Made by a program: the position numbers and the translations under genes. Shown piece after piece: positions 1,707 to 61,100 of a DNA stretch of 64,000 nucleotides; positions within the stretch are counted from its first letter, which is position 1, and the number at the start of each line of letters is the position of its first letter. The notes beneath the pieces are model-generated. The model had not been told where the DNA came from. It ran no database searches and saw nothing but the letters and a program-made list of their open reading frames with translations. Origin of the DNA: a virus. Location: positions 32,001 through 96,000 of IMG/VR virus record IMGVR_UViG_3300045988_171958; one strand, 5' to 3'.

Positions 1707-2360
1707 ATGATAAATTTCAATTTCATAATTGATTGCTTAGCTTCATTAAATACTATGAGGAATGATGTTGGGTCTATGAAAAACATCAATATTCTTTCTG
1801 ATATGATTAAAGAAGCTATATTGGACAATCAAACAATATATATTACAGGAATAGGTAAGCCAGGATATATAGCTCAAAAGAATGCTGCCACATTGAAATC
1901 AATAATGGTTGATGGACAATTCATAGATGCGTGCTTAGCAGGACATGGAGATTTAGGACCTATTTCAACTGACAAACCATCTTTGTTGATTGCTATGTCA
2001 AAATCTGGATGTTCAAATGAACTTTATGTGTTGTTCAAATACATGAAACAATTGCGACCAAAATGTAAAATTGCAATGATTTGCATGTCAAATGAAATGC
2101 AATTGAATAAAGTAAGGTCATGTAAAGATATTGATTTTATTTGCCATATAAAGACAGATCCAGGAGAGTTGGATGGATTTGGAATTGTACCGGCTACATC
2201 AAATATAATATTTGAAGCAGTAATGTCCACAGCTATATCTGGGGCATTCAATTCAGAAGAGCTTGGTATGGTAAACATGTGTGAAAGATTGCAAAAGAGT
2301 CATCCATCAGGAACATTGCAATCAAAAGTTACTAATCTTTTGAATACTTTAAGAAATTAA
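1707..2360 (+). CDS. SIS-domain sugar-phosphate isomerase, KdsD/KpsF-like (arabinose-5-phosphate isomerase type)
   Basis: IYITGIGKPGYIAQKNAATLKS resembles the GxGKSGxIgxKiaATlaS SIS motif. ..AGHGDLGPIS..LLIAMSKSGCSNEL resembles the HGDLG / SxSGxtxE motifs of KdsD. No CBS domains are present. Confidence 0.7.
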   Translation: MINFNFIIDCLASLNTMRNDVGSMKNINILSDMIKEAILDNQTIYITGIGKPGYIAQKNAATLKSIMVDGQFIDACLAGHGDLGPISTDKPSLLIAMSKSGCSNELYVLFKYMKQLRPKCKIAMICMSNEMQLNKVRSCKDIDFICHIKTDPGELDGFGIVPATSNIIFEAVMSTAISGAFNSEELGMVNMCERLQKSHPSGTLQSKVTNLLNTLRN

Positions 2361-2368
2361 TCTATATT
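2339..2368 (+). promoter_or_regulatory. promoter-like element (TTTGAATA-N13-ATCTATATT)
   Basis: Lies in the last codons of the SIS gene, and a second TCTATATT box follows at about 2377. Positioned upstream of the ATG at 2402. Confidence 0.4.
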
Positions 2369-2401
2369 AATATTGTCTATATTAGTATTGATTTAAAATT
2401 G

Positions 2402-15381: not shown

Positions 15382-15675
15382 ATGAGTAGAATAATAGAAA
15401 TAGAAAGAGATAGCAGACCAGTAAATATAAAAGTAGGATATCTTCCAACAGAAGAAACTACTGTATATATCAAATGGGCCATATATAAAAAGAAGCATAA
15501 GTTTCTTTGGAAGACTTGGTATACATTTGATTATGACTTGACTGTACCATATATATCAGAAAAGCCATTGTCCGCAGCAGAACGTGAATCTAACATCAAA
15601 TTAGAATTAGCTAGTATAGAAGTAAGGCATAGTATCTATCAGAGAATTTTAAGTAAAAAGATGCAATTAAATTGA
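15382..15675 (+). CDS. hypothetical protein
   Basis: The internal ATG (MSRIIEIERD..) was chosen because the track start at 15277 overlaps the divergent gene and the promoter. Confidence 0.55.
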   Translation: MSRIIEIERDSRPVNIKVGYLPTEETTVYIKWAIYKKKHKFLWKTWYTFDYDLTVPYISEKPLSAAERESNIKLELASIEVRHSIYQRILSKKMQLN

Positions 15676-15699
15676 AATTTTCTATAAAGATTCTATATT
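15672..15699 (+). promoter_or_regulatory. promoter (TTGAAAT-N12-TTCTATATT)
   Basis: Consensus match, followed by TATTATGTA as in the other copies. Confidence 0.55.
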
Positions 15700-15737
15700 T
15701 ATTATGTATTATTTAAAACATTTAAAATTTGATTATT

Positions 15738-16254: not shown

Positions 16255-16503
16255 ATGGAAGCAGTTGGATTTATCTTAGTAGGAATATTGATAGGTGCAT
16301 GTTTAGTCACTTTAATGTCATTATGGGTATATCATCAATCATGTCCAAATTATACAGAAAGAGAAACTGGAGTTATTTGGCACTTGAAAACAGTAGCAGC
16401 AGATGCATTTTCTGGTAAAGCTGTCTATATAATGCAATCTACTAAGACAGCAGAAGTATTAGCAATGAATATGCAAGATTTTAACAACAGGTTCAGACAA
16501 TAA
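16255..16503 (+). CDS. small single-pass membrane protein
   Basis: 82-aa ORF with N-terminal VGFILVGILIGACLVTLMSLWV. Confidence 0.55.
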   Translation: MEAVGFILVGILIGACLVTLMSLWVYHQSCPNYTERETGVIWHLKTVAADAFSGKAVYIMQSTKTAEVLAMNMQDFNNRFRQ

Positions 16504-16518
16504 GTTTGAACCTGTTTT
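16488..16518 (+). terminator. intrinsic terminator
   Basis: Stem CAGGTTCA (16488-16495) / TGAACCTG (16507-16514), followed by TTTT. It spans the stop codon. Confidence 0.65.
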
Positions 16519-16535
16519 AGTCTAATTACTATATT
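16505..16535 (+). promoter_or_regulatory. promoter (TTTGAACC-N12-ATTACTATATT) of the U32 operon
   Basis: The -35-like box lies in the 3' arm of the preceding terminator hairpin, the same nested arrangement seen at several other promoters in the window. Confidence 0.45.
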
Positions 16536-16576
16536 AATATTAATATTAAAGTTTAATTAAAAAGAAAGAAGTAAAT

Positions 16577-20371: not shown

Positions 20372-20373
20372 AG

Positions 20374-22414: not shown

Positions 22415-22425
22415 ATCATAAAATC

Positions 22426-22468: not shown

Positions 22469-22470
22469 TT

Positions 22471-25015: not shown

Positions 25016-25044
25016 TTTGAAATATTCTTGAATAATTCTATATT
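25016..25044 (+). promoter_or_regulatory. promoter (TTTGAAAT-N12-TTCTATATT)
   Basis: Exact consensus, followed by ATATATGTT. Confidence 0.6.
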
Positions 25045-25081
25045 ATATATGTTAATTTTAATTATTTAATTTAATTTAATT

Positions 25082-27196: not shown

Positions 27197-27225
27197 TTTG
27201 AAATTTTCGAAAGAAATTCTATATT
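27197..27225 (+). promoter_or_regulatory. promoter (TTTGAAAT-N12-TTCTATATT)
   Basis: Exact consensus, followed by TATTATGTA. Confidence 0.6.
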
Positions 27226-27253
27226 TATTATGTAAAAATAATAATGATTAATA

Positions 27254-29352: not shown

Positions 29353-29781
29353 ATGGCTACTATAGATGATATTAAAGAGGCAGTAAAGAATCATAACGAA
29401 GGTTTCTATCTTGATGATTATGAATTTGAATGGTCTGCAGTATCCGGAAGAAATACTTTGGTTATAACACCATTAAAGGGAGCACAGATCATATCGATGT
29501 ATGTTGATGCTAATGACAAACTTCATGCAATTGTTAAAGAAGAGCCTTATAAGCAATATAATCCTATCAATATTACTGTAAGAGTACAGAAATGCCCAAT
29601 TCCTGGTAAGGAATATAGTACAGAATTGAATCCAGATTTTAGTAAGGATAAGATTATTTTTACAATATTCAACAAGTGTGGATATCCGGAGTACTATGTA
29701 TATATGGACCTTAGGAATGAATATTGGATGAATGAATATAATTTAAAGAAAGCTAGTAATTTACTTGGTTCAATTTTTTGA
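29353..29781 (+). CDS. hypothetical protein
   Basis: 142-aa ORF in the co-oriented array. Confidence 0.65.
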   Translation: MATIDDIKEAVKNHNEGFYLDDYEFEWSAVSGRNTLVITPLKGAQIISMYVDANDKLHAIVKEEPYKQYNPINITVRVQKCPIPGKEYSTELNPDFSKDKIIFTIFNKCGYPEYYVYMDLRNEYWMNEYNLKKASNLLGSIF

Positions 29782-29805
29782 AATTATTAAAGATTGTTCT
29801 ATATT
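29777..29805 (+). promoter_or_regulatory. promoter (TTTGAAAT-N12-TTCTATATT)
   Basis: Exact consensus overlapping the stop of the previous gene, followed by ATAATTGTA. This tail is identical to the one at 31033-31050. Confidence 0.6.
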
Positions 29806-29833
29806 ATAATTGTAATGATTAAAATATAAAACA

Positions 29834-31010: not shown

Positions 31011-31041
31011 TTTGAAATTTAAAATATAAAGGTTCTATATT
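31011..31041 (+). promoter_or_regulatory. promoter (TTTGAAAT-N14-TTCTATATT) of the SSB gene
   Basis: Consensus boxes with a 14-nt spacer; an 85-nt leader follows. Confidence 0.55.
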
Positions 31042-31064
31042 ATAATTGTAAGATAAATATAATC

Positions 31065-32276: not shown

Positions 32277-32310
32277 AAAAGAGCAGAATTCTTAAGAATT
32301 CTGCTCTTTT
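32277..32310. terminator. bidirectional terminator (30-nt palindrome)
   Basis: AAAAGAGCAGAATTCTT|AAGAATTCTGCTCTTTT lies between convergent genes. A smaller hairpin GCTTCAG/CTGAAGC at 32232-32250 precedes it. Confidence 0.75.
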
Positions 32311-33198: not shown

Positions 33199-33227
33199 TT
33201 TGAAATTTTTTATGTTTATTCTATATT
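33199..33227 (+). promoter_or_regulatory. promoter (TTTGAAAT-N12-TTCTATATT)
   Basis: Exact consensus, followed by TAAGATGTT. Confidence 0.6.
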
Positions 33228-33254
33228 TAAGATGTTAAATAATAAATATAGATT

Positions 33255-35105: not shown

Positions 35106-35150
35106 AAATAAAAGTTTGAAATAACTTAGTTCATTTTATTCACTAAGTGA

Positions 35151-35178
35151 ATGAAATTAATTAAAATTGTTCTATTTT
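35151..35178 (+). promoter_or_regulatory. promoter (ATGAAATT-N12-TTCTATTTT variant)
   Basis: Consensus-like boxes 27 nt upstream of the ATG at 35205. Confidence 0.45.
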
Positions 35179-35204
35179 ATATTTGAATAAAAAATATTGA
35201 AATT

Positions 35205-40670: not shown

Positions 40671-40675
40671 ACTAA

Positions 40676-40703
40676 ATCAGGATGAACTTAAGTTCATCCT
40701 GAT
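40676..40703 (+). terminator. hairpin after nrdD, followed directly by TTCTATATT
   Basis: ATCAGGATGAACT / AGTTCATCCTGAT 13-bp stem. The -10-like box TTCTATATT at 40703-40711 lies 7 nt before the nrdG ATG region. Confidence 0.65.
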
Positions 40704-40717
40704 TCTATATTATAAAT

Positions 40718-41483: not shown

Positions 41484-41490
41484 TTTTAAA

Positions 41491-41532
41491 AGTGCATGAA
41501 ATTTTGAATTTATTTTTGAAATTTCATGCACT
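41491..41532 (+). terminator. 12-bp hairpin that encloses a -35 box
   Basis: AGTGCATGAAAT (41491-41502) / ATTTCATGCACT (41521-41532). Confidence 0.6.
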
Positions 41533-41543
41533 TGTTCTATATG
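41515..41543 (+). promoter_or_regulatory. promoter (TTTGAAAT-N12-TTCTATATG)
   Basis: The -35 box and spacer lie in the 3' arm of the hairpin at 41491-41532. Confidence 0.5.
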
Positions 41544-41570
41544 TTAACTAAAGTTAACAGGAAATAAAAG

Positions 41571-41599
41571 TTTGAATTTTAATTCAACTTTTCTATATT
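41571..41599 (+). promoter_or_regulatory. promoter (TTTGAATT-N12-TTCTATATT), tandem to the previous one
   Basis: Consensus match 31 nt upstream of the ATG at 41630. Confidence 0.55.
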
Positions 41600-41629
41600 A
41601 GATACGTTAAACAAATATAAATAAAAACA

Positions 41630-43252: not shown

Positions 43253-43268
43253 ACAAAATAAATAGATC

Positions 43269-43490: not shown

Positions 43491-43529
43491 TACTTAATTA
43501 AAGATATTATTTTTAAACCAATTGAATAT

Positions 43530-43847
43530 ATGACTTACGAAGATTTTTTGAAAACCTTTATTGAAGAAAATAAAGATAAAGTATCAAGAGATAGATTGTT
43601 TGGTGGATATGATATTGATCGTTATGATTATGATAAAATGGTCAATAAATGTTATTGGTTTATTACCGATAAAATGAATCTAGAATTTCCTAGACCAGAT
43701 ATTGATTCAGAAGAATATCATGATTATTATAGAAATATGATGATTATGAAAGCTTTTTGTGATGCATTTCAAAAATATGCTGATAATCATCTTATGTATT
43801 TACCAAAACCACCAAGTACAGAAGTATATTGTGGACAACGAGATTAA
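43530..43847 (+). CDS. hypothetical protein
   Basis: 105-aa ORF. Confidence 0.6.
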   Translation: MTYEDFLKTFIEENKDKVSRDRLFGGYDIDRYDYDKMVNKCYWFITDKMNLEFPRPDIDSEEYHDYYRNMMIMKAFCDAFQKYADNHLMYLPKPPSTEVYCGQRD

Positions 43848-43864
43848 TAAATATTACTATATAA

Positions 43865-44155: not shown

Positions 44156-44483
44156 TTTAAGTAAATTAGATAAAGCAGAAAAGAAAGAATTCATATCTGC
44201 TGTAAATGATGCTATACTGAAACAAAAATATCGTATAGTAGTAAGAAGAATATTCAAGCAGTATACTTACAATGATACTACATATCTTATTAAAGAATAT
44301 GCGGTACAGAAAAGAAAGAAGTTCTTGTTTTTCTATTGGTGGGATTTTTGTGATAGAAATGAACATGGATGGGTAAAATGGACAGATAAGCTTGAAAATT
44401 GTGAAAAATACATATATGACAAATATCTTGGTACTGGTGTAAAACCTACATTTGAAGTACTAGGATTGATACCAAGTGAATGA
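44142..44483 (+). CDS. hypothetical protein
   Basis: The internal ATG (MTTGDLSKLDK..) overlaps the previous stop by 14 nt. The upstream part of the track ORF duplicates the coding space of 43865-44155. Confidence 0.55.
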   Translation: MTTGDLSKLDKAEKKEFISAVNDAILKQKYRIVVRRIFKQYTYNDTTYLIKEYAVQKRKKFLFFYWWDFCDRNEHGWVKWTDKLENCEKYIYDKYLGTGVKPTFEVLGLIPSE

Positions 44484-44503
44484 CAATTGTCATTCACTTT
44501 TTT
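44475..44503 (+). terminator. intrinsic terminator
   Basis: AGTGAATGACA / TGTCATTCACT stem followed by TTTTTT. It contains the stop codon. Confidence 0.75.
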
Positions 44504-44511
44504 GCATTTGT

Positions 44512-44540
44512 TTTGAAATTTTTAAATTCATTTCTATATT
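44512..44540 (+). promoter_or_regulatory. promoter (TTTGAAAT-N12-TTCTATATT)
   Basis: Exact consensus. Confidence 0.6.
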
Positions 44541-44579
44541 AAATCTGTTCAAAATAAGAAGTTTAATTTTTAAAATTTT

Positions 44580-44855
44580 ATGATTATGATTACAAAGACT
44601 TTGAATGACTATGCTACAGAACTTGCGATGATAAATGCTAATTTCTGTTCAACATATTTACCAAGCGAAATTTATGGTTTCACTCTTGAAGCTTTACGTA
44701 TTTTGATTTGCAATCGTATTATGAACAACAATATTGTTAAGATGGAACAGAAAGATATTGATACATTGATTGGTTTTGTGTTAGATTTTTCTGATGCTAA
44801 GATGATTACATATCGTGAAGCTCTTGTAAAATATTCAGAAATTTTACATTGCTAA
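44580..44855 (+). CDS. hypothetical protein
   Basis: 91-aa ORF after the promoter. Confidence 0.6.
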   Translation: MIMITKTLNDYATELAMINANFCSTYLPSEIYGFTLEALRILICNRIMNNNIVKMEQKDIDTLIGFVLDFSDAKMITYREALVKYSEILHC

Positions 44856-44858: not shown

Positions 44859-44887
44859 TTTGAAATTTCTTGGTATTATTCTATTTT
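44859..44887 (+). promoter_or_regulatory. promoter (TTTGAAAT-N12-TTCTATTTT)
   Basis: Consensus with one -10 substitution. Confidence 0.5.
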
Positions 44888-44928
44888 ATTCATGTCAAAT
44901 AAATAATAAACATTAAAATATTAAAATT

Positions 44929-45228
44929 ATGATTATCGATTTTGTTAAGTTACATATTGCAGAAGCTCTCAGTGAAGTTGCTAATAACTATGGCAATGAG
45001 GAATACCTCAATGAAGTAGTTAAAATCAACTTTGATCAGTTGGTAGAAGATATTTTTAAGGGTTTAAATGGATATTTTACTAGAGATGCATGGCCATCCG
45101 TAAAAGATATCATCTATACCATGCTTCTTGATAAGAAGACTTTAGATGGTATTGCGAATGCAATCAAAGGTATGATGGCTTTACACAATTTTGATATTGA
45201 AAAGGCTGGTGGAATCATTAGATATTAA
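44929..45228 (+). CDS. hypothetical protein
   Basis: 99-aa ORF. Confidence 0.6.
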   Translation: MIIDFVKLHIAEALSEVANNYGNEEYLNEVVKINFDQLVEDIFKGLNGYFTRDAWPSVKDIIYTMLLDKKTLDGIANAIKGMMALHNFDIEKAGGIIRY

Positions 45229-46502: not shown

Positions 46503-46527
46503 CATTTTGGCAGGAATATATGACAAT

Positions 46528-46568
46528 GTGTCAGAATTTTGTAATCATGAAATTCTGGCACACTTTTT
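46528..46568 (+). terminator. intrinsic terminator enclosing a -35-like box
   Basis: GTGTCAGAATTT / AAATTCTGGCAC (one G.U pair) followed by ACTTTTTT. Confidence 0.65.
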
Positions 46569-46576
46569 TCTATATA
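46548..46576 (+). promoter_or_regulatory. promoter of dnaK (TGAAAT-N14-TTCTATATA)
   Basis: The -35-like box lies in the hairpin loop and 3' arm. The -10 box comes right after the T-run, 42 nt before the dnaK ATG. Confidence 0.5.
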
Positions 46577-46617
46577 TTAATTAGATAAATAAAAACATAT
46601 ATAAGATTAAATTTAAA

Positions 46618-48573
46618 ATGAGTAAAGTTTTAGGCTTGGATCTCGGTACTGGTATGTCATGTGTAGCAGTAATTGAGGCAGGTAAACCAGTTGTGGTAGT
46701 AAATGAAGAAGGAACAAGAACAACACCATCAGTAGTACAGATTACAAAAGATGAAGTGAAGATTGGTAATGCAGCAAAGCGTGCAATGGTAACAAATCCA
46801 AAGAACACTATCAGTTTTGTAAAGCGTTTGATGGGTGCTGATTTTAATGATGAGAATGTAAAGAAGATGCAGAAGCTTGCAACTTATGATATTGTAAATA
46901 AGTCTGGTAAGCCTTATGTTAAGATCGATGACAAAGAATATTCTCCTGAACAGATTTCATCTATGATTGTTGGCAAGATGAAAAAAGTTGCACAAGACTA
47001 TGTTGGTGAAGAAATTAAAGATGCAGTAATTACGGTACCAGCTTGGTTTGGTGATGCTGCCCGTACAGCAACTAAGACAGCAGGTGAGCTTGCTGGATTG
47101 AATGTACTTCGTGTAATTAATGAGCCAACATCAGCGGCATTGGCTGCTAACTTGATGGAAGACAAGAAAGACAAGACTGTTGTAGTAGTGGATTCTGGTA
47201 CTGGTACAGTCGATGTTTCTGTTCTTGAGTTGTCTGATGGTATGGCTGAAGTACTTGCATCAAATGGTGATGTATATCTTGGAGGTAAAGATTATGATGA
47301 TGCTATTGTAAAGTGGGTAGTTGATGAATTCAAGAAGTCAGATGATGTTGATTTGGCAAAGGACAATATGGCTTATGCTCGTGTAGTAGAATCTGCAGAA
47401 AAAGCAAAGATTGAATTGTCAAGTTCAACACAGACAGAGATTAATCTCCCATATATTTCTATGAAAGATGGTGCACCATTGAATCTTGCTATGACACTTT
47501 CTCGTGCTAAGTTTGAATCTCTTGTAAAGAATTTGAATGATCGTACTGTTGAAAAGGCAAAGATTGCTGTAGAGAAGGCTGGTAAGAAATATGATGATAT
47601 TGATTGTATCTTGCTTGTAGGTGGTACAACTCGTATTCCATCATTACAAGAGGCATTGAAGAAGGAATTCAATAAGCCATTGAATCAATCTGTAAATCCA
47701 GATGAAGCAGTTGCATTGGGTGCTGCTAAGCAAGCTGATATTCTTGCTGGTAATTCTACTGGTGATTTGTTGCTTCTTGATGTTACTCCATTGTCATTGG
47801 GTATCGAAACTAAGGGAGATATGATGGCACCTATTGTTGAAGCAAATACAACAATTCCATGTCAAAAGAAGCAAGTATTCACCACATCTATTGATAACCA
47901 ACCTATGGTTGAAGTGAATGTATTGCAAGGTGAACGTAAGATTGCTTCTGGCAATAAGTCTATTGGTAGATTCAGATTGGATGGAATTCCTATGGCAAAG
48001 GCCGGTGTACCACAGATTGAAGTTTGCTTTGATATTGATGCAAATGGTATTGTTACAGTTACTGCTAAAGATCTTGGTACTAATAAAGAACAGCATATTA
48101 CAATCAGTAACAACACACTTACTGATGAGGAAATCAAAGCAATCAAGGAAGATGCTGAGAAGTTCAAGGAAGCTGATGAAAAGAAGACACAAGAAACCAA
48201 TGACATCAATGATGCAGAACGTTATATGTTCAATACAAAAGAGATGATTGCCAATGAAGACTTTGTCAAGGCTACATCAGATGAAGATAGAGCTAAAGCA
48301 CAAGAAAAACTTGATGCATTAGAATCAATTGTTGTATTGAAGGACAAAGACCATGATAAGATCATGGAAGCTAAGAAAGAGTTAGAAGAAGTTTGGAACC
48401 CTATAGTTGAGAAATTCTATGCCGATAAGCAAAAGAGTCAAGATTGTACTAATAAGACAGAGACACAGGAAGGAAATGCAAAGGAAGAGAATGCGTCAAA
48501 TCCTGACAATGATAAGAAGGAAGAAAAATCAGATGATGTAAAAGTAGAAGATGCAGTAGTTGAAGATGCATAA
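46618..48573 (+). CDS. dnaK: Hsp70 chaperone DnaK
   Basis: Full-length 651 aa. Motifs include LGLDLGTGMSCVAV, ..AVITVPAWFGDAAR..AGLNVLRVINEPTSAALA.., LLVGGTTRIPS.. and DEAVALGAA, plus a substrate-binding domain and an acidic C-terminal tail. Confidence 0.95.
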   Translation: MSKVLGLDLGTGMSCVAVIEAGKPVVVVNEEGTRTTPSVVQITKDEVKIGNAAKRAMVTNPKNTISFVKRLMGADFNDENVKKMQKLATYDIVNKSGKPYVKIDDKEYSPEQISSMIVGKMKKVAQDYVGEEIKDAVITVPAWFGDAARTATKTAGELAGLNVLRVINEPTSAALAANLMEDKKDKTVVVVDSGTGTVDVSVLELSDGMAEVLASNGDVYLGGKDYDDAIVKWVVDEFKKSDDVDLAKDNMAYARVVESAEKAKIELSSSTQTEINLPYISMKDGAPLNLAMTLSRAKFESLVKNLNDRTVEKAKIAVEKAGKKYDDIDCILLVGGTTRIPSLQEALKKEFNKPLNQSVNPDEAVALGAAKQADILAGNSTGDLLLLDVTPLSLGIETKGDMMAPIVEANTTIPCQKKQVFTTSIDNQPMVEVNVLQGERKIASGNKSIGRFRLDGIPMAKAGVPQIEVCFDIDANGIVTVTAKDLGTNKEQHITISNNTLTDEEIKAIKEDAEKFKEADEKKTQETNDINDAERYMFNTKEMIANEDFVKATSDEDRAKAQEKLDALESIVVLKDKDHDKIMEAKKELEEVWNPIVEKFYADKQKSQDCTNKTETQEGNAKEENASNPDNDKKEEKSDDVKVEDAVVEDA

Positions 48574-48598
48574 ATAATTTACATCAATAACAGTTTGA

Positions 48599-48637
48599 AT
48601 GGTCGATTGAATGAATGAAATTTGATCGACCATTTTC
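48599..48637 (+). terminator. hairpin after dnaK enclosing the -35 box of the dnaJ promoter
   Basis: ATGGTCGAT (48599-48607) / ATCGACCAT (48625-48633) followed by TTTT. Confidence 0.6.
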
Positions 48638-48643
48638 TATATT
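48616..48643 (+). promoter_or_regulatory. promoter of dnaJ (TGAAAT-N13-TTCTATATT)
   Basis: Consensus boxes, followed by TAACATGTC. Confidence 0.55.
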
Positions 48644-48673
48644 TAACATGTCAAAGAATAGATAACAAATAAC

Positions 48674-49705
48674 ATGAAAGATTACTATGATATTTTAGGT
48701 GTATCTAGAGATGCATCAGAAGATGATATTAAAAGAGCATATAAGAAAATAATGCTCAAATATCATCCAGATAGAATGGGTAACAAATCTGATAAGGAAA
48801 AGAAAGAAGCTGAAGAGATTGTAAAATCAGCTAATGAAGCTTATGAGACTTTATCAGATCCACAAAAGAAGCAAGAATATGACAATCCAGGTTTTGGTGG
48901 AGGATTTGATCCATTTGCTGATTTCTTTGGTCATGATAGGTCAAATGGGACATCTTGGCATACTGAAGATTATCGAGATTTGAGAGGTAAGAATTGTGAA
49001 GGAAAATTGAATATTGATATTTCTGATTTCTATTTTAAAGGTATCAAGTCAGTAGCATATTTGAAGGATTTCAGATGTAATGTTTGTGATGGTGAAGGTG
49101 GTACTGGTGTTAAAGTTTGTTCACACTGTAATGGTACTGGTATGGTAACTGAATCTAGACGGCAAGGAAACATGTTCTTCCAATCTAGCCATCCATGCCC
49201 TTATTGTAATGGTAAAGGCAAGACAGTAGAACATAAGTGTGCGGCTTGTTCTGGTACTGGTTTTATTGGTAAGTTGGTAAATGAAGAAATTGACTTGTCA
49301 AGAATTCCATTGGAATATCTTTTGAAAGATGGTATTAGAATTGATGTTGGTCCACTTGGTTCTGAATCTAAATCTGTAAATGGAACAAATGGAGAACTCT
49401 ATATTACTGTACAACATACTTATGACCATAATAAATATCATATTGATGATTATGGTAATGTAGAAGGTAAAGAAGATATTGATTGGAAGGATGTAATGCT
49501 TGGTGGTAAGATTGAAATCAATTTACCTGGTAATAAGAAGATGAGAATAAATCTTCCAGAATGTTCTGAAGTAGGTAAGAAACTTAGAATAAAAGGAAAA
49601 GGTATTGATGGGCATGATTATACAATGGTTGTCAACCCAGTATTCCCTAAAACACTTGATAAAGAAACAAAGAAAGCAATTGAACATTTAAAAGAGAAAG
49701 GATAG
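48674..49705 (+). CDS. dnaJ: type I J-domain co-chaperone DnaJ
   Basis: J domain DYYDILGVSRDASEDDIKRAYKKIMLKYHPDR, a short G/F stretch and four CxxCxGxG zinc-finger repeats (CNVCDGEG, CSHCNGTG, CPYCNGKG, CAACSGTG). Confidence 0.9.
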   Translation: MKDYYDILGVSRDASEDDIKRAYKKIMLKYHPDRMGNKSDKEKKEAEEIVKSANEAYETLSDPQKKQEYDNPGFGGGFDPFADFFGHDRSNGTSWHTEDYRDLRGKNCEGKLNIDISDFYFKGIKSVAYLKDFRCNVCDGEGGTGVKVCSHCNGTGMVTESRRQGNMFFQSSHPCPYCNGKGKTVEHKCAACSGTGFIGKLVNEEIDLSRIPLEYLLKDGIRIDVGPLGSESKSVNGTNGELYITVQHTYDHNKYHIDDYGNVEGKEDIDWKDVMLGGKIEINLPGNKKMRINLPECSEVGKKLRIKGKGIDGHDYTMVVNPVFPKTLDKETKKAIEHLKEKG

Positions 49706-49709: not shown

Positions 49710-50669
49710 ATGGAAGATAGTAAGGTTTTATATTATATAAACAAAGGTATAGAAAGATTACAAGAGAATTGTAGATTTCCACCAGAATCTATTATAGATA
49801 ATGATAGATTTTTATCTGCTTATGCTTTTACAAATAATGATTATAGAATATTCCAACGCTGGATAACAGTAATCATGGAAGTAAAAGCAATAGATACAAG
49901 TAAGTCATTCTTCATACCATGTATTCTCCGTAAAGTACCAGAACGAATATTTAATGAAAGAGTAAATGATATTTGCTATGGCGCATCTACTCAATATACA
50001 TTGAATGATTCATATATAGAAGATTTAGAGATTGTATTGAATGAAAAGTATTATAAGATACTAGCAGAAAACAATTTCATGAAGGCAGTATATTGTGAAA
50101 ATGGAGAACTGAAAATGAGACAAAGTTATTCATTTGATACAAATATGTCTGTAGCTGCTATGAAGCTGTATCCAAGAAAATGCAATTTAGCTTTCTATCC
50201 ATATTCATTCAGTATGTTTGCATATACATCAGATCGAAATTCATGGAATACTGAGTTGATGAATATTATCGGAGACAGGAGTTTTGAAAGTATAACAAAA
50301 TTATCTAAACAATATTTTACTATCAATGATGTAAGTCTTGGAACATTCATTTCTAAATTGTCTCTTAATGAAGGATATTCTAATGGAAGATCTGGAATTG
50401 GATATGAGAATACTATTATGAAATGTGTATGTAATTCTCTTTCATTAGTATTTTATGATAAGACAACATTATCAGATGAGGAAATAGAGAAAGCTGCTAT
50501 TACTATAAATGAAAATGATCCTAACTTCAATAAAGCATATACTATTGATTGTCAAGGTAAGAAATTTAAAGAAGTGGATGAATTCTTTGATAATCAAGAA
50601 AAAATAGAAAAGAAAAATAAAGAAAATAAACCAAATATTATCATAACAAATGATGAATTTTTGATTTAA
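49710..50669 (+). CDS. hypothetical protein, 4 nt downstream of dnaJ
   Basis: 319-aa ORF with no GrpE-like or other motif recognised. Confidence 0.7.
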   Translation: MEDSKVLYYINKGIERLQENCRFPPESIIDNDRFLSAYAFTNNDYRIFQRWITVIMEVKAIDTSKSFFIPCILRKVPERIFNERVNDICYGASTQYTLNDSYIEDLEIVLNEKYYKILAENNFMKAVYCENGELKMRQSYSFDTNMSVAAMKLYPRKCNLAFYPYSFSMFAYTSDRNSWNTELMNIIGDRSFESITKLSKQYFTINDVSLGTFISKLSLNEGYSNGRSGIGYENTIMKCVCNSLSLVFYDKTTLSDEEIEKAAITINENDPNFNKAYTIDCQGKKFKEVDEFFDNQEKIEKKNKENKPNIIITNDEFLI

Positions 50670-50682
50670 ATTTTTCTATATT
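50658..50682 (+). promoter_or_regulatory. promoter-like element upstream of the tRNA-like gene
   Basis: TTCTATATT at 50674-50682 is followed by ATTAATGTT. The -35 region is degenerate (TGAATT / TTTGATTT). Confidence 0.45.
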
Positions 50683-50706
50683 ATTAATGTTAAAACAATT
50701 AAACTT

Positions 50707-50794: not shown

Positions 50795-51688
50795 ATGGAA
50801 ATTTTAGACAAGAAATTTAGTAAGTACAAAGTATTTTTTGCAGAGAAAGGTATTACATCTACTTCTGCTAATCATGTTTCTAATAAAGGTAAAGAGTTGT
50901 TGAAGTCAGAACAGGCAATTCTTGACAATATCAATTTTGTCAATACTACTGCTTCATTGCTTTCTGGTGGTGAATCTAGAACTATTACCAAAGGTATGAG
51001 TGCAGATTCTTTTGAATCTATGCATAAGACTATTGCAAAGATTGCAAATCTGAATGCTATGAGTGCATGGATTCATGAAGCAATCAAAGCAAAGACAGAG
51101 ATTCTTGAGTATGTTCAGTCACTTAGTATTGACAACTGGGCTAAAGAACAGAATATTGAACTTCCAAATGCCGCATGTAAGGAATTTCCAATTACTGAAT
51201 CTGATGTAATTGGTACATGGGATGTTGCTAAAAGAAATAAGTATTATGTATATGAATCTTATTGTTCTCTTGTTGGTAAGTTCATTCATCCTAAAGGAGC
51301 ATTTTATGAAGCTAAAGCACAGATGAATAATGCTGTACAGAATCCAAACAAGGTAGAAGGTTCTGGTCGTGATGCAATCATTTATTCTTATGAACCGTCT
51401 ATGCCAATATCTGATGTAAATGTAGAATATAATTGGTTGTCTACTGAACTCCGACATAAAGAAGCAGAATTCAATAAGATGAAGCAAGAAATTGTAGATG
51501 CTATTACAGAAGATAAGCTTGCTAAGGCACAGAAGTTCAATGATGCATATGCAAAATATATTGATACAATGGAAAGTATCAGAAATAAGTTTGACATGTG
51601 GAAAACTAAGGCTGTAAAGGAAGTTAGTGCATTGAAGATTTATCTTCCACAAGGACCTAAGCAGACTTATGATGAAATCAACAAATAA
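50795..51688 (+). CDS. hypothetical protein
   Basis: 297-aa ORF. The long antisense ORF 51119-51718 is Ile/Phe/Cys-rich and low-complexity. Confidence 0.75.
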   Translation: MEILDKKFSKYKVFFAEKGITSTSANHVSNKGKELLKSEQAILDNINFVNTTASLLSGGESRTITKGMSADSFESMHKTIAKIANLNAMSAWIHEAIKAKTEILEYVQSLSIDNWAKEQNIELPNAACKEFPITESDVIGTWDVAKRNKYYVYESYCSLVGKFIHPKGAFYEAKAQMNNAVQNPNKVEGSGRDAIIYSYEPSMPISDVNVEYNWLSTELRHKEAEFNKMKQEIVDAITEDKLAKAQKFNDAYAKYIDTMESIRNKFDMWKTKAVKEVSALKIYLPQGPKQTYDEINK

Positions 51689-51744
51689 AATTAAAATATT
51701 GACATAGTAGATTTGCAAGTCCGGTTTAAGATAAGCAAGTCAAA

Positions 51745-51984
51745 TGACATCAGTTATGTGATTACTTCTGAATATATATCTATCTTAGTAACATAGGTGA
51801 AAGCCAAAATCTATATTGGTTTTGACTCTGATAATGAAACTGAGTATCAAGGGATCAAATAAATTTTTTGACCATACAATGTGTAAGCGTACACGCTATG
51901 TTGTTATGGTGTTCTAGTTCATGATCTTGCGCCTTGATACGTTCTTGCTATAGTTCTGGATATTATTGTCATGAACTGATGTCA
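51745..51984 (+). ncRNA. candidate structured RNA (~240 nt) in a 384-nt non-coding gap
   Basis: Nested helices: TGACATCAGTT (51745-51755) / AACTGATGTCA (51974-51984); GTATCAAGG (51844-51852) / CCTTGATAC (51932-51940), extended by GATCA / TGATC; ACCATACAATGT (51871-51882) / ATGTTGTTATGGT (51898-51910). The region is locally GC-richer than its surroundings and has no ORF. Confidence 0.45.
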
Positions 51985-51989
51985 ACGGA

Positions 51990-52044
51990 AAGGTTAAGAA
52001 ATAGTAGAAAATATTTAAATATGTTTTTGAAATTTCTTAACCTT
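51990..52044 (+). terminator. 13-bp hairpin enclosing a -35 box
   Basis: AAGGTTAAGAAAT (51990-52002) / ATTTCTTAACCTT (52032-52044) followed by TTT. Confidence 0.6.
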
Positions 52045-52054
52045 TTTCTATATT
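52026..52054 (+). promoter_or_regulatory. promoter (TTTGAAAT-N12-TTCTATATT)
   Basis: Exact consensus. The spacer is the 3' arm of the preceding hairpin, and TATTATGTA follows. Confidence 0.6.
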
Positions 52055-52072
52055 TATTATGTATTAAAATTA

Positions 52073-52381
52073 ATGATTAAGATTATGATAAAGAACAATT
52101 ATTCAAAAGCATATACATATACGATTATTGTGAACATCATATTTGCAAATGGTGTTAAAGAAAAGCTTTGTCGATACACTTGCGACATCAATTTGAATCC
52201 AATTAATAAGATTATGGACAAGTTGAATGCTACATTGATTGATAAAGATGGTACTCCAACGTTAGAATTTGCTAATTGGATTATTGAGAATCATCCAGAA
52301 TTCAAGATAAGTGATATTCTTGATAAGGATACTAGAATATATTTTGAATTTGTTGATTCACTTCCTGCAATTAACATTTAG
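52073..52381 (+). CDS. small hypothetical protein (tandem paralogue family, member 1)
   Basis: 102 aa with ..IDKDGTPTLEFANWIIEN.. and C-terminal ..RIYFEFVDSLPAINI. Confidence 0.6.
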   Translation: MIKIMIKNNYSKAYTYTIIVNIIFANGVKEKLCRYTCDINLNPINKIMDKLNATLIDKDGTPTLEFANWIIENHPEFKISDILDKDTRIYFEFVDSLPAINI

Positions 52382-55097: not shown

Positions 55098-55099
55098 AA

Positions 55100-55128
55100 A
55101 TGAGCAGAACTTAAGTTCTGCTCATTTC
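55100..55128. terminator. bidirectional terminator between convergent genes
   Basis: ATGAGCAGAAC / GTTCTGCTCAT stem flanked by AAAAA and TTT. Confidence 0.75.
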
Positions 55129-55149: not shown

Positions 55150-58100
55150 TTATTGATTATAATAAGATTTACCATAACAATATAAGTTAACTGTATGACT
55201 AGTAGAAGCATCAGTACCAATATGTATATTCTTTGGAATCTTATCAATAGGACATACAAATGTATATTCATAAGATGAAGTACCAAGTGTAGAAGCATCA
55301 GTACCTTGTACTGCAGTTAATGTATGTTTGGTTGCATTTAATGTATAATTATAAGTTTTGGTCCAATCCTTTGTTGATGTACCAGAAGTAGCAGTAACTT
55401 TATAATCAGAAATAGAAGCTGTAGTATCATAGGTTTGTGGATCAAATGCAGTTATTGTCTTATCATCACTACATGTTAAAGTACCAGTAAAATCAACTGT
55501 TGCTCCATAATTTTTAAGGGTAAATGTACAACTAGCAGTTGATCCTCCATAAGAGATAGTACATGTAACATCAGTAGTATTACCGTCAGTTGCATTTTTA
55601 CCAGCAGATACTGTAACTTTATTTGTACTTGTTGTACTATTACCATAATCCCAATTATATGTTACACCTGGATCATCAATTACAATAAAATCACCAAAAT
55701 TAACACCATCAGTTGAAGTGGCCATTTCACAAACAATATGTACACTTAAATCAAATGTTGAAGCATTTGTATCAAAGTATGTATGTTCAATAGTTTGTGT
55801 TGTATTTGTTTCATTAACATTTGTACCACAATAAACATAAAGATTATATATAGCAGTCATAGATGTTACTTCAAATGTCCACTCATAATCTTTTAATTCA
55901 TATTTTTTATTTATTTCATGGTTTTCTATTGTAGTAGATATATCTACACTATCTAATTTAAACGTTCTAATACCAATTACATCAGGAGTGGTTGTAACTT
56001 CTATTGTTTTAGTAGTTTTATCATACTTTTTACCATCACATAACCAATTGTATTTTATTATTGCATTTGAAGGTAAATTTTCAATAAAAGAAGGCCCTAT
56101 AAATACTTTAGTATTATTCTGTACTGGTTTACCATTTTTCTTGCTTAATTTAATTATTGCTGAAAAAGGACTAACAACCTTTATTCCGGTACGATCTTCA
56201 GTAGCACCTATTGTACATTTTATAGGTTTACTTATACTAGTAACACTTTTACATTTATCATAATTTGTACTATCAGTTTTAAAATTATCTTCATGGACAT
56301 TAATAGTTGTATTCTCATACTTTTTAATTCTAGTAAACTTTGTGATATATGCTGATTGTATTTTTGCTCCTTCAGAAGATATAGATTTATCAATAACTAG
56401 GTTTGCACAATTAAATGTTTTGGTTATTTCAAATTCTGCTGATTGTGTACCTTTACCATTCGGTGTTCCTTGTTGCACTACAGGTGCACTAGCAGTATTT
56501 TTATTGTAAGTGTATTCTAATTTTATAGTTCCTAATGGTCTTTCTTTAATACCTGTACTTACTCCTCCTGTTACTGTATAGAATTCTAATTTCTTAGAAT
56601 AATTAGTAGTATCATTAGACTTATCATCTATTTCTTTTAATAATTTAACCAATTTATTACCAGTCCAATTATTCACACCAGGTGTTATAATTGAACCAGA
56701 TTCACCTTCATTCTTATCATAAATTAAATGACAAATTTTGCTCTTTATAGTTTTAGAATCTAGATATACTTTTGTTTCATCAATTCCTTCAGAAGGTTCA
56801 AAAGACCAACTATAATAATTATCAACATCAAGTTTTCCAGCTGGTATTTTAAAATATGTATAAGTTAAAGATGTTGAAGGTTTTGTCAAGTCCGGAGTTG
56901 AAACTTTAGGATCAAATCTAGTAGATGCAGCATTGGTATAAGGGGTATCTTCAATGGGAATATTCCATTTTGTATCAACATTAATCTTAAAGAATGTGTC
57001 CTTTCCTGGTTCATACTTAGGTTCATCCGAAGCTGATATTGGTTCATTACCTCCAGAAGCACTTACCATTATCTTATCATCTATAGTATTTAATGTTATA
57101 TTATCCCATGTTAAAACACCATTATCTAAAGTAACTTTTCCTATAAGAATACCTGTTTTAATAGATGTATTACCCGATTTACAATCATTTATATCTATAA
57201 GTTCATCATATAAATTTAATGTACCATTTCCATTATCTATAATACTATTAAGTTTCTCTGATGTAAATTTTATAGTACCTGGCAAAGTTTTAGGATATAA
57301 AGGAGTTTTGTTACTTAATTTAGCAGGTATCATCGTAATAAATACATTATAATCATTTACTAAAGAAAGATCATCCACGGTATTTAAATATGTTTGCCCA
57401 TAATGTTTAAGAGTAAATGTACAAGTTGAATGATATGTTTCTTTATAAGTTGCTGTACATGTAACTATTTTATCTTTAGAATTATTATACCCTTTACCTG
57501 GTTCTAAATCAACTTTTGTATTATTTCCATTTGCTTCTGTTATAATATTGCCATTATCTTTCCATGAATATGTTACTTTAGGGTCATCAATTTCTATCCA
57601 ATTATTATAATCACTACCATTTTCTGTTGTTCTATACCAACATCTAACATATACATTTAAATTAAATGTTGATGCATTTTCAGCCCAATATAAGTGCTCA
57701 ATTGTTTCTGCTTGTGTTTGTGTTTTGGTAGAATATATAACAACACTATATTGATAACCAGTACCCGTAGTAACTACAAATTTCCATTCATATCCTAACT
57801 GGTATCTTGTAATGAATGTTTGTCCTGAAATTTCTGGATATGTAGAATTATTTTCATATTCATCTGTAACAGTACATTCATCTAATGCAAATGTTCTAGT
57901 ACCTGTTGTTGAAGGTGTAGTTGTAACTTCTATTGTGTTAGTGGTTTCACCATAAGATTCACCATCTAATTTCCAAATATATTTAATTGTTCGTTTTTTA
58001 GGTTTAACCATTTTATTACTTGCTGGACCAACAACAGTCTTACTACTATTAGAAGATATTCCATTCATCTTTAATCTATCAATTATGGCAGAAGGAATAG

Positions 58101-61100
58101 CAACTACAGTAATATTATTTTCTGTATTTTCTGTACAACCTATTGTACATTTGATAGGTTTATCTATTGTGGTAGTACTACTACATTTATCATAATTTTC
58201 ACCGTATTTTGTAAATGTTCCTTCTTTTATATTTAAAGAAGCTTTATTCCATTTTACTCCAGCAGTAGTAAACTTTGTGATATATGCTATATCTTCATTA
58301 TTTCCGGTTGCTGATATTGATGTATCTACTAAACAACTACAATTTATTTGATTTGATACTTTAAATGTTGCTGAATTAGTCTGTTCACCTGCAGTTTTAC
58401 CATTTTGAGTGACCTTAGTAGTAGCACTAGTACCAGTCTTTGTATAATCTAATTTTAAAGTACCTAATGGTCTACTATCTTGAGCTCCAGTTACACCTCC
58501 AATAACTTTATAAAATCCTACTTTATCTTTATTTTCTTTTATTTCTTTTGTTAAAATGTAAGAATCCTTTGTCCATATCCACTCATTAAATTCATCAGTA
58601 ATATTTTCTCCTCTTGGTTTAGGATTATTAGGATAATTTATTTTTACAGTTCTCTTAGTGTTATTACTTAATGTTACTCCAGTTACTCCTTTATCAGGAG
58701 TAAATGACCATTTATAATAATCATTAACATCTAATTTTTCTCCTGGTACCTCAACATCAAATGTAGATTGTCCATTAAATGTAGGATCAGAAGTATCTGT
58801 ATATGGACTATCAACATCAGGAACATTCCATGAAGTTGAAACAGATATAGTAAATTTACCATCTGAACCTGCAGTATAATTTGGACTATTTGTTGGTGTA
58901 ACATCATGTGTACCTTCTTCTGCTCCAACAGTTACATTATCCAATTTGATAGTTGTCCATGTTAATGATGCAGAATCTTGTGTATATGTACCTATATCTA
59001 ATGTAGTAGATTTAAAATCTTTATTACCAGAGACACTTAATGAACCTGATCCACTTTTTTTTCTACTACTAAATGTTAATATTGCTGGAAGGCTATCAGG
59101 ATATTCTGTTGAAGTACTACTACGTTTTGTCGGAGTTGATCCTACATACACATGTCCATCAGATAAAAATGGAGTGGCTAAATAACCTCCATAATCTTGT
59201 CCAAATCTATATAAGTTAAATTCTACAGTACCAGAATATCCTTCTGCTGAACTTACTGTAACAGAAATAATTTTACCTAAGCCTAGGTTATCCATACTAG
59301 TTCCTGGAGTTACAGATGAAACATTAACTGTTGCTGTGTTATTTTTATTACTATCTGTTCCTACCCAAGTATATTTAACACCAGTAATACTTGTACTATC
59401 ATTTTTCCAATCATCAGTACCTACCTTTGATTGTAATTGATAACCAGCAACTTTTAATTCCCATTTAGTTGAATCCCAATATATTTTTTTACTTGTATAA
59501 GCTTCTAAAGTAATCTTAATTCTAAATTGCTTCTGTTGGGATGTTATTGTAATTGTACTACTATTTAATTCATTATATTTATTATCACCATTAAACCATG
59601 CAACATAAATAACATAAGTTCCTGGTTTTGTTATATGTACAGTACTTTCTCCAGTAGTATCTAATGATTGCCAATTTTTAGTATCAGTACCTTCAACAAC
59701 TGCCATTTTAGCAGTATATGTAGTATCAACTAATGGGCCTACAGAACCAGATGATGATTTAGTTGTTGTTTGGGTATCGCCAATCCATCCATCTGGACTT
59801 TCTGGATGTATACTAAAACCATACATATAATTCCATGTCTTCTTACCAGTATGTTTGTAATTTACTGTTAAAGCAGATATTGATTTTACTCCTAAATATG
59901 TACTTACAGGAACATTATATTTAAATTCTTGACTTGAACCTTCAAATGTTGCAGTAGGTACAGTAGTTGGAAAATTACCTTCTGATAACTTATCGGAATA
60001 ATTATATATGTATGTACTTATATTCTCACTTGACCCAGTATCACCTGATGGGTTAGGATCTGGTGATGTTATATTAGATACAGTAAATGCGCCATAATCA
60101 ATAGATTCATTATAACTTTTATCGGCAGGACCCACTGGTTTAGATGTGGTACAATTTACTCCAGATGTTACAAAAGTATAAGCTATTTCATCATGCCAAC
60201 CTTCTTGCCCATTTTGTGGTACTGTTATTGAATTTCCTTCGTATGTTATACTACTATTATTAATATCTACTACTCTTATCTTAATAGTATGGTTTATTGG
60301 ATCTGCTGTTTTATAATATCCTGATGTATATTTGTATATTCCTTCATTTACATCAGTCCATTCATCAGAAGATTTCAAATCAAGAGAACAATCTCTATCC
60401 CATGTTGCATCATTGCTTTGTATATATTTAGTAGTAGAATCTGACCAACTTCCTGTATCTACTTTATATTGATATTTATAATTAGCAGGGTTGGGTTGTA
60501 CAGATCCGCTAAGTACAATACCATTGGCAGGGTTTGCAGGTTTAGAACTAATTATATTGCTACTTACAGATATTGAATAATCTTGCTTCTTACTAGTTGC
60601 AGATTCTGTTTCTACAGTACCTGATGATTTAGATATAATAATAGTTGCACCATACCAAGGAATAGTAGTATAATTTACACCAGGAGTAAGGTTTTTTTGT
60701 CCTGTAACATACAATTGTTTAGCTGATTTGAGACTATAATTGGCACTTGTACTCTTACCATCAACAGGGTATTTGGTGCTCCCATCACAACTATTTATAC
60801 CTTCACCAGTTCCTTTTATAGTAATAGTACCAGATATGTTAGTACCATTTTGAGATATAGTTATAGTAGATGGGCTTGGTGTCAGTACACCATCTTGATA
60901 AGTAGATCCTGAAAATGATATAGTGCCAGATGTTGCTGATGAATTTTTAGTAGTAGATGTAAATGTAAGTGTACCATCACTAGCAGAGGCATACCAATTA
61001 CCTATTATTGGCGGATTAGAAGCCAATGTTGCAGTAAAACTATCATCAGTATTGTCATTATTCCATGTTTTGCTTGCCTTAGAAAATGTCAAATCTTGAG

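Follow-up and report, generated by a model that had tools for sequence, protein, structure and literature searches.

Probable PeSL-like terminator/promoter cassettes in the non-structural gene block of a jumbo phage that likely infects Bacteroidota

T4-type phages of the RB49/phi1, PST/T4 and nt-1/KVP40 groups carry promoter-early stem-loop (PeSL) cassettes (PMC2839356, Arbiol et al. 2010; PMC4122927, Comeau et al. 2014). In a PeSL, a strong early promoter of host type is combined with a stem-loop, which precedes the -35 and -10 boxes, lies between them or overlaps them (PMC2839356; PMC4122927). Their promoter and terminator activities have been demonstrated, and modular shuffling has been implicated (PMC2839356, PMC4122927). 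Here, we analyzed a 64,000-nucleotide stretch of viral DNA (the window; positions 32,001 to 96,000 of IMG/VR record IMGVR_UViG_3300045988_171958), in which a two-box motif recurs between plus-strand genes and is at several sites interleaved with a hairpin. The motif is best explained as the promoter routinely used for the plus-strand block of non-structural genes in a jumbo phage, and we consider it likely that its copies form PeSL-like composite terminator/promoter cassettes, probably read by the host sigma-A. An earlier note on this sequence had called the interleaving of hairpin and promoter an unusual second layer, but it has a published precedent in the PeSL cassettes (PMC2839356).

The window is part of contig CACVDK010000001.1 (293,853 bp; NCBI assembly GCA_902729945.1), and its source is a gut-type jumbo phage of about 294 kb. 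A long plus-strand block between 15.3 and 55.1 kb holds non-structural and unknown genes, and minus-strand blocks on both sides of it (about 4.2 to 15.3 kb and 55.2 to 64 kb) hold the recognizable structural genes. On the plus strand, we found 15 strong and about five weaker copies of the consensus TTTGAAAT-N12-TTCTATATT-N5-tGT, in agreement with the roughly 20 intergenic sites listed in the earlier note. The ten coordinates given there as exact or near-exact copies were all correct, with a spacer 2 nt longer at 31011; the distance between TTCTATATT and TGT, which the note had put at four nucleotides, is five. A search for TTTGAAAT-N12-TTCTATATT with at most three mismatches returned 13 matches in the window, 12 of them on the plus strand, compared to a mean of 3.5 and a maximum of 9 in dinucleotide shuffles. 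A position weight matrix (PWM) scan at a threshold of at least 10 bits returned 15 plus-strand sites and no minus-strand site. The motif is therefore far from equally frequent on the two strands and is absent from the minus-strand structural genes, as had been claimed. Inspection of the sequence upstream of those genes revealed nothing convincing as a late-promoter motif. Chance occurrence in AT-rich, low-complexity DNA was ruled out by the shuffles, the strand asymmetry and the spacer-swap control described below. Literature searches found no earlier description of the motif or of promoters for this clade.

The consensus is common to a clade of IMG/VR phage contigs of 166-283 kb, and 668 kb of DNA from this clade yielded 161 to 165 distinct motif sites. 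At 137 of 165 sites, the two 9-nt boxes are 11 nt apart, so that TTTG and TA are separated by 19 nt. The downstream G is conserved at 93% of sites even though it was not used to select them. When sites were reselected on a minimal core only (TTTG-N19-TA..TT-N6-G; n = 124 distinct clade sites), positions outside that core stayed conserved: AAAT after TTTG at 90-99%, TTC before TATATT at 93-95% and the T after the G at 82%. Conservation is stronger in TGAAAT than in the two leading T's of TTTG, and some window sites read ATG or TTG in place of TTTG.

The motif is tightly coupled to open reading frames (ORFs). Good window sites from the two-block scan are intergenic, with the end of the box 18-41 nt ahead of a start codon; the distance is larger at 31011 (84 nt) and at 50658 (112 nt). 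Across the clade, an ATG-initiated ORF of at least 40 amino acids (aa) begins 10-70 nt downstream (median 30 nt) of 138 of the 161 distinct sites (86%), compared to 23% of random positions. This coupling is strong evidence for a promoter, whose activity we infer from sequence. The position, strand and spacing of the motif and the conserved G at the predicted start all point to a promoter. In the T-12/A-11 numbering (PMC6847099), the predicted +1 is this G, 7 nt past the TATATT hexamer, and TTTG then occupies -35 to -32.

The earlier note had described six hairpins as ending at the downstream box with the upstream box and spacer in the loop or 3' arm. All six hairpins are real, with folding z-scores against shuffles of -5.0 (16486), -5.3 (40675), -6.6 (41490), -3.6 (46527), -4.0 (48597) and -5.9 (51987; -4.4 for the longer span 51975-52062). 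The nesting held for four of them. At 41490, 46527, 48597 and 51987, the loop or 3' arm contains the -33 box, the spacer constitutes the 3' arm and the stem ends between -2 and +5 relative to TTCTATATT. The 16486 hairpin ends 10 nt ahead of a variant box, and the 40675 hairpin has no -33 box. As RNA of the sense strand, all six would be of terminator grade. Strong hairpins occur seven times between co-directional plus-strand genes, and in 7/7 cases a -7 box then lies within -2 to +32 nt.

The hairpin at 51987..52047 (+) has arms GGAAAGGTTAAGAAAT / ATTTCTTAACCTTTTT that form 16 bp around a 29-nt loop with its own inner helix. Most of the -33 box lies in this loop, and the 3' arm runs from the last bases of that box across the spacer into the first bases of the -7 box. 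The corresponding promoter (52026..52062, +) is an exact match, TTTGAAATT-N11-TTCTATATT-N5-TGT, and has the highest PWM score (47 bits); its predicted +1 G is at 52061, and the box ends 18 nt from the ATG of ORF 52073-52381. The hairpin after dnaK (48597..48635, +) has 16 bp including G.U pairs and a 7-nt loop, with the -33 box in the loop and 3' arm and a stem that stops at the -7 box. Its promoter, AATGAAATT-N12-TTCTATATT-N5-TGT at 48614..48651 (+), was detected by the PWM and lies upstream of dnaJ (48674-49705). At 46527..46562 (+), a 16-bp hairpin with a 4-nt loop carries the -33 box in its 3' arm and is followed by TTTTTT and then CTATATA. The promoter there (46546..46584, +; CATGAAATT-N13-TTCTATATA; PWM) precedes dnaK (46618-48573). 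The hairpin at 41490..41533 (+), with arms AAGTGCATGAAATTT / AAATTTCATGCACTT, has 15 Watson-Crick pairs, or 19 with G.U pairs, and a 6-nt loop. Its 3' arm consists of the -33 box and spacer of the promoter at 41515..41551 (+), which reads TTTGAAATT-N11-TTCTATATG and lacks the downstream G.

The remaining hairpins are less intimately joined to a promoter. At 16486-16516 (+), a 13-bp stem with a 5-nt loop holds TTTGAACC in its 3' arm and precedes the variant box TACTATATT at 16527; the whole element (16486..16543, +) is a weak promoter candidate that heads the gene array 16577-25009. The hairpin between nrdD and nrdG (40675..40704, +; 13 bp, tetraloop) runs into TTCTATATT. Because it lacks a -33 box and the nrdG ATG lies 6 nt past the box, we did not count it as a promoter, and it is probably a terminator or attenuator only. 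An ordinary terminator hairpin at 44474..44499 (+; 11 bp, tetraloop, T-tract) lies 32 nt upstream of the next -7 box and is adjacent to the promoter, not nested. The 44859 promoter has orthologues with a nested hairpin (TTCAGAAGTTT / AAATTTCTGAA) in relatives L001, L002 and L005, and the window copy of this hairpin is decayed. The hairpins at 40675, 41490, 46527, 48597 and 44474 all passed a scan for the terminator consensus. A presumed terminator is built into the promoter at about one-third of sites in the window and at about 14-27% of sites clade-wide, and about three-quarters of promoters have no hairpin.

Classic terminators with A and T tracts on both sides are found at the convergent gene ends 26673-26699, 32277-32310 and 55098-55127. 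Canonical intrinsic terminators also follow minus-strand genes at 12396-12435 and 4735-4764. These five have stems of 12-15 bp, mostly 3-4-nt loops (12 nt at 12396) and A/T tracts on both sides. The polymerase that transcribes this phage therefore appears to use ordinary Rho-independent termination.

We then asked how far pairing is conserved. The spacer pairs with its own upstream DNA to form a stem of at least 12 bp at 13.9% of clade sites, compared to 2.0% when spacers are swapped. The register is shared by at least 10 unrelated stem sequences, in many cases with the self-complementary AAATT(T) of the -33 box as the seed. Within the 41490 family (seven sequences), 7 of 15 pairs have changed on both sides and 96% of cells are paired. 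None of 500 shuffles reached this covariation, and pairing collapses when the partner column is slid. Orthologues of 41490, 46527 and 51987 in L004 keep the helix with different bases: the arms at 51987 become GGAATGGTTAGAAAA / TTTTCTAACCATTTT with pairing kept, and 46527 shows a compensatory G-C to A-U change. Variants of 48597 in L001 and L005 retain pairing through G.U pairs. Internal non-Watson-Crick pairs, read on the sense strand, comprise seven G.T and no A.C, which fits an RNA helix in the sense transcript. Our initial comparison of sense and antisense folding was biased, as G.T pairs had been allowed in the selection; upon repetition with Watson-Crick-only selection, sense was favored in 25 of 29 cases. 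Terminator-like hairpins are interleaved with promoters in this phage, as the earlier note had recognized, and the arrangement is conserved by covariation.

These features suggest how such a cassette could work. Each promoter would comprise a -33 element (TTTGAAAT), an extended -7/-10 element (TTCTATATT) and a fixed initiating G, giving a very strong and uniform early or middle promoter that would work like the early promoters of T4. At hairpin sites, the intrinsic terminator of the preceding gene would be built into the promoter. The 11-13-nt spacer, which is free of sequence constraint, would provide the 3' arm of the RNA hairpin, with the self-complementary AAATT(T) of the -33 box belonging to this arm too at most hairpin sites, and the T-rich -7 box would encode the U-rich tail of the terminator. 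Because transcripts from a nested promoter would start downstream of the hairpin, the hairpin should form only in transcripts arriving from upstream, and it would therefore insulate the small gene cassette while the promoter restarts transcription. Moreover, because the elements of about 60-90 bp are near-identical and in the same orientation, they could serve as crossover points for the gain, loss and swapping of cassettes between related phages.

Synteny breaks between relatives cluster at these elements. We aligned six relatives (L001, L002, L003, L005, L006 and L007) to the window and counted breakpoints between 36 and 55 kb, with a cassette defined as the interval from -30 to +65 nt of a -7 box. 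Such intervals cover 4.5% of the region, yet 7 of 23 breakpoint clusters fell on promoter cassettes (P ~5e-5), and 7 of the 9 cassettes in the region coincided with a breakpoint. The breakpoint at 41535/41591 serves as a worked example. In L001, L002 and L003, a gene of about 140 aa directly follows the 41515 hairpin-promoter. This gene is missing from the window, where a 56-bp segment carrying the 41571 promoter (41571..41607, +; upstream of ORF 41630-41875) replaces it and thus leaves a tandem pair of promoters 56 nt apart. The 41515 promoter is probably a remnant at the place of the missing gene, and the same promoter doublet is found at a different locus in L002. Further cassette-sized insertions map to 44879 (752 bp, L003), 52046 (285-359 bp; L003, L005 and L007), 48635+25 (412 bp, L006) and 40703+20 (952 bp, L003).

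One further gene in this region has a match outside the clade. The DNA of ORF 43530-43847 (+; 105 aa, function unknown) is 85% identical to Prevotella phage Lak-A2, the only megablast hit obtained from 40-56 kb. The ORF is located in one of the indel hotspots, and L001, L005 and L007 lack the segment around it (43005-43864); no canonical cassettes flank it. The match suggests recent gene exchange between distantly related phages, possibly because of a shared host.

A DNA search of GenBank found no close phage genome and gave the Lak-A2 segment (320 bp) as its sole match. The nearest relatives by protein are the Prevotella Lak megaphages (DnaK 57% identical) and metagenome-assembled genomes of huge phages, together with jumbo phages of Tenacibaculum, Chryseobacterium, Flavobacterium and Sphingomonas; identity to the nearest phages Lak, pT24, PTm1 and PAU, which are jumbo phages, is 22-28%. 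When IMG/VR was scanned for the exact pattern, contigs with many copies all came from two samples (3300045988 and 3300001525), the largest being 148-283 kb, and other contigs had single matches, or two in a few. Among the many-copy contigs are relatives of the window that were identified by their DnaK (77-99% identity). Start codons are not preceded by an excess of Shine-Dalgarno-like 4-mers (3 of 68 genes, versus 6.5% of random windows), and leaders are A-rich, a pattern described for Bacteroidota (PMC6847099). A Bacteroidota host, Prevotella-like, is likely for this phage, because Shine-Dalgarno sequences are not enriched and the nearest phages infect Prevotella and Flavobacteriia; the host proposed in the earlier note is thus favored.

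We next considered which polymerase reads the motif. Promoters of the Bacteroidota primary sigma factor (sigma-ABfr) have a -33 TTTG and a -7 TAnnTTTG element, as summarized in Baez et al. 2019 (PMC6847099). The -7 element is near-invariant at T-12, A-11, T-8, T-7, T-6 and G-5 (PMC6847099), with G-5 near-invariant in Flavobacterium promoters. The window motif resembles this type in its TTTG near -33, the 19 nt from there to TA, its T-12, A-11, T-8 and T-7 and the A-rich leaders without Shine-Dalgarno sequences. It differs in having T-6 at only about 40-50% of sites, and it has additional features: GAAAT after TTTG, TTC before TATATT and the fixed tGT at the predicted start. We favor the host sigma-A because the motif serves genes of pre-replicative type and is absent from the structural genes, because the clade's own sigma gene (described below) has a degenerate motif upstream, and because high uniformity of early promoters is usual for large virulent phages. 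Scans of the window ORFs against Pfam and PHROGs revealed no sigma or transcription factor. Reading of the motif by host RNA polymerase with its primary sigma factor is likely but unproven.

Several observations weigh against the interpretation as PeSL-like cassettes read by the host sigma-A. With respect to the hairpins, the 29-nt loop at 51987 is unusual for an intrinsic terminator, and the U-rich tract after some nested stems is modest; the sequence after 41490, for example, is GTTCTATATG, which is moderately T-rich. Hairpin-free promoters also fold 2.4 kcal/mol better in sense, and we rejected the sense-over-antisense energy as proof of an RNA-level role, since it is partly a compositional bias and lends slight support at most. 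With respect to shuffling, 16 of the 23 breakpoint clusters lie away from cassettes, and neither microhomology nor any other repeat was evident at them. The cassettes would therefore be one exchange route among several. With respect to the polymerase, the motif lacks the G-5 of the Bacteroidota sigma-A type, the position being G at 6-10% of sites, and it scores 10/12 as a sigma-70-type promoter (TTGAAA-N16-TATATT). The Bacteroidota assignment made in the earlier note thus stands for the geometry and for T-12/A-11/T-8/T-7 and fails for G-5, and the motif is equally sigma-70-like. The motif is also not enriched in 42 kb of Prevotella phage Lak-A2 around its dnaK, so its extended consensus is clade-specific and not a general host signature. 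Finally, the clade encodes a sigma-70-family protein outside the window (L026 6248-7501, +; 417 aa), which qualifies the transcription by host polymerase that the note had proposed. This protein matches Pfam Sigma70_r2 at 31 bits (cut-off 24) with a weaker region 4 match, and L054 and L101 encode homologues of it. About 35 nt ahead of the start of the sigma gene lies TTTGAATAA-N11-TTTACTATT, which is a degenerate version of the motif.

The points concerning the polymerase are shared by an alternative in which the architecture is the same but the promoter class is phage-specific, read either by the host core polymerase with this sigma-70-family factor or by the host sigma together with a phage activator that would bind the TGAAAT box in the manner of MotA in T4. 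The sites would then be middle-mode cassettes like the 'PmSL' elements of phage nt-1, which are a documented precedent (PMC4122927). The sigma-like gene and its homologues, the missing G-5 and the lack of enrichment in a phage of the presumed host genus are all consistent with such a class, as is a consensus far tighter than that of generic host promoters, with TGAAAT better kept than the first two T's of TTTG. However, phage sigma factors usually drive late structural genes, which here lie on the minus strand and lack the motif. The degenerate motif before the sigma gene suggests that this gene is itself expressed by whatever reads the motif first, presumably the host enzyme, and the motif agrees with the host type in its -33 TTTG, 19-nt spacing and TA..TT. 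We therefore regard a phage-specific class, its two variants taken together, as unlikely.

A second alternative keeps the promoters and reinterprets the hairpins as stabilizers or processing sites of RNA 3' ends, such that polymerase would read through and an RNase would trim back to the stem. Covariation and G.U pairs point to structure at the RNA level without showing termination, and some stems have weak U-tracts or long loops. Most stems, however, are directly followed by T-rich sequence and resemble the canonical terminators at the convergent junctions of the window. In addition, the drop in reporter expression caused by the PeSL211/210 stem-loop was similar to that caused by rrnB T1, a strong terminator (PMC2839356). 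Processing sites in place of terminators are in our judgment improbable.

The composite-cassette interpretation can also be carried further. Termination within the -7 box could release polymerase onto the next promoter for immediate recapture, a form of termination-coupled re-initiation, and the cassettes could be a dedicated exchange system among huge Bacteroidota phages. If re-initiation were coupled in this manner, the nesting would have a function beyond compactness, and each gene cassette would be insulated yet efficient in its use of polymerase. We offer this extension as speculation with a small chance of being correct.

A role of the inverted repeats in DNA, as a cruciform, a promoter-occluding switch or palindromic operators for a dimeric regulator, is very unlikely: the -33 box does hold the self-complementary AAATTT (several sites read GAAATTTC) and the repeats overlap the region bound by polymerase, but the stem sequences are wholly different between sites with pairing kept by compensatory change, which indicates structure and not a protein operator, a cruciform would place A.C mismatches on its other arm, in conflict with the seven G.T and no A.C in sense, and the roughly three-quarters of promoters that have no repeat show that it is not needed for promoter function. 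The unrelated but covarying stems rule out a protein operator palindrome, and the data can be explained without the cruciform, switch or promoter occlusion raised in the earlier note, which nothing we found favors.

With the composite terminator/promoter cassette as the preferred interpretation, the other promoter sites in the window can be described briefly. All are on the plus strand. Exact matches lie at 25016..25052 (upstream of ORF 25082-25450 and an OmpA-domain gene), 27197..27233, 29777..29813, 33199..33235 (upstream of ORF 33255-33440) and 44512..44548 (upstream of ORF 44580-44855). The promoter at 31011..31049 has a 13-nt gap and precedes the gene for a gp32-like single-stranded DNA-binding protein (31126-32232). 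Pattern matches were found at 15671..15707 (ATTGAAATT-N11-TTCTATATT), 35150..35186 (AATGAAATT-N11-TTCTATTTT; also by PWM) and 44859..44895 (upstream of ORF 44929-45228). The PWM detected the variant GATGAATTT-N13-TTCTATATT-N5-TGT at 50652..50690, ahead of ORF 50795-51688. Among the variants that the earlier note had listed, 15672, 35151, 46548, 48616 and 50658 are good sites. Those at 1630 and 2339 are plausible, and both keep the downstream G; the latter (2339..2376) reads TTTGAATAC-N12-ATCTATATT-N5-TGT and lies 30 nt ahead of ORF 2399-3727. The sites at 15325 and 16505 are weak, reading TACTATATT with no G at the expected position.

Proteins recognized in the window include a T4-like baseplate wedge protein, the gp32-like protein, the OmpA-domain protein, NrdD, DnaK, DnaJ, NrdG and a homing endonuclease. 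Rfam at the gathering threshold identified no known RNA family in the window. The nrdD gene is split by an insertion of about 295 bp (39335-39632) into ORFs 37880-39397 and 39624-40670. It is continuous, without this insertion, in L001, L002, L005, L006 and L007 (the L003 alignment could not be judged). The insertion gives a full-length match to the group I intron model RF00028 at 39368-39619 (+), with a score of 30.6 bits (E 5e-6) that is below the gathering score. The nrdD gene of T4 carries an intron, which parallels the insertion seen here. The homing endonuclease is encoded by ORF 19148-20371 (+; phrog_3339 at 8e-30, Pfam DUF7487). Copies with 70-73% identity occupy other intergenic sites, between nrdD and nrdG in L003 (about 2022-2974) and immediately ahead of the hairpin-promoter of dnaK in L005 and L007 (about 8750-9895). 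In L006 (3300045988_170924), dnaK is broken by a 1,521-bp insertion (8480-10001, corresponding to window 47199/47203) that is found neither in the window nor in the other relatives and could represent an intron, or an intein, that carries a homing endonuclease.

Three further stretches deserve mention. Between gene 50795-51688 and the 51987 hairpin, about 300 nt (51689-51985) contain no ORF of at least 35 aa and align with close relatives; this stretch could be a non-coding RNA or a decayed gene. The minus-strand ORF 55150-63027 encodes 2,625 aa with no match in Pfam or PHROGs. Its middle (about 55.8-59.5 kb) is unalignable to relatives and the remainder aligns at 79-88%, and the product may be a variable giant virion or tail-fibre-like protein. 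ORF 14229-15293 (-), which adjoins the tail and baseplate genes, encodes a RimK-like ATP-grasp protein, and its neighbor ORF 12479-14245 (-) has a weak match to 'ribosomal protein S6 glutaminyl transferase'.

This analysis provides a precise promoter model that extends to the predicted start nucleotide and applies to an uncultured clade of phages of 166-294 kb, whose hosts are probably Prevotella-like Bacteroidota. If the cassettes are what we propose, PeSL-type elements and their link to modular shuffling would extend from the T4-type phages of Proteobacteria to another phage lineage and another host phylum. Their presence in a different lineage and phylum suggests that large virulent phages have arrived at this arrangement repeatedly and that it is not peculiar to T4. 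The compact promoter and terminator units, of about 40-60 bp, could also serve as parts for Bacteroidota genetics.

Two other phage systems invite comparison. The early promoters of T4 have a consensus that extends beyond the host elements (Hinton 2010, PMC2988021). Like these, the window promoters form a class far more uniform than host promoters, with extra consensus positions, and would capture host polymerase for pre-replicative genes. Unlike T4, the host phylum and the recognition elements differ, and no Alt-like or other modifier was identified here. In phage N4, a short hairpin is the recognition element for the virion RNA polymerase and is present at every early promoter. The window shares with N4 an inverted repeat inside the promoter region, but its stems are 10-19 bp long and free to vary in sequence. 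An N4-like obligatory hairpin promoter was ruled out, as most promoters of this phage have no significant hairpin.

The closest comparison is with the PeSL cassettes. As in PeSLs, near-identical strong promoters, here predicted ones, are repeated in short gaps between small genes, many of which belong to no known family, and the upstream region is AT-rich. Both have a stem-loop immediately before the promoter, between its boxes or over one box, and this stem-loop can be read as terminating the preceding unit. When close relatives are compared, indels and replacements are concentrated at the cassettes of both systems, and half-cassettes and tandem remnants are found. There are also differences. 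PeSLs combine sigma-70 promoters with a Shine-Dalgarno sequence and start codon at the 3' end, whereas the window consensus is of the -33 TTTG / -7 TA..TT form, has no Shine-Dalgarno sequence and places the start codon at a regular distance, with a median of 30 nt. PeSL phages belong to the T4 subfamily; the window phage has a T4-like baseplate wedge protein, a gp32-like protein and a probable group I intron in nrdD, but its nearest phages are the jumbo phages Lak, pT24, PTm1 and PAU. Stems occur at a minority of its promoters, and in the commonest geometry here the 3' arm takes in the -33 box, partly or wholly, by way of AAATT(T). Promoter and terminator activity as well as mini-circles belong to the description of PeSLs in T4-type phages, whereas the activities of the window cassettes are predicted from sequence. 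The PeSL concept has already been published, and the cassettes described here add to that known type instead of constituting a new kind of element.

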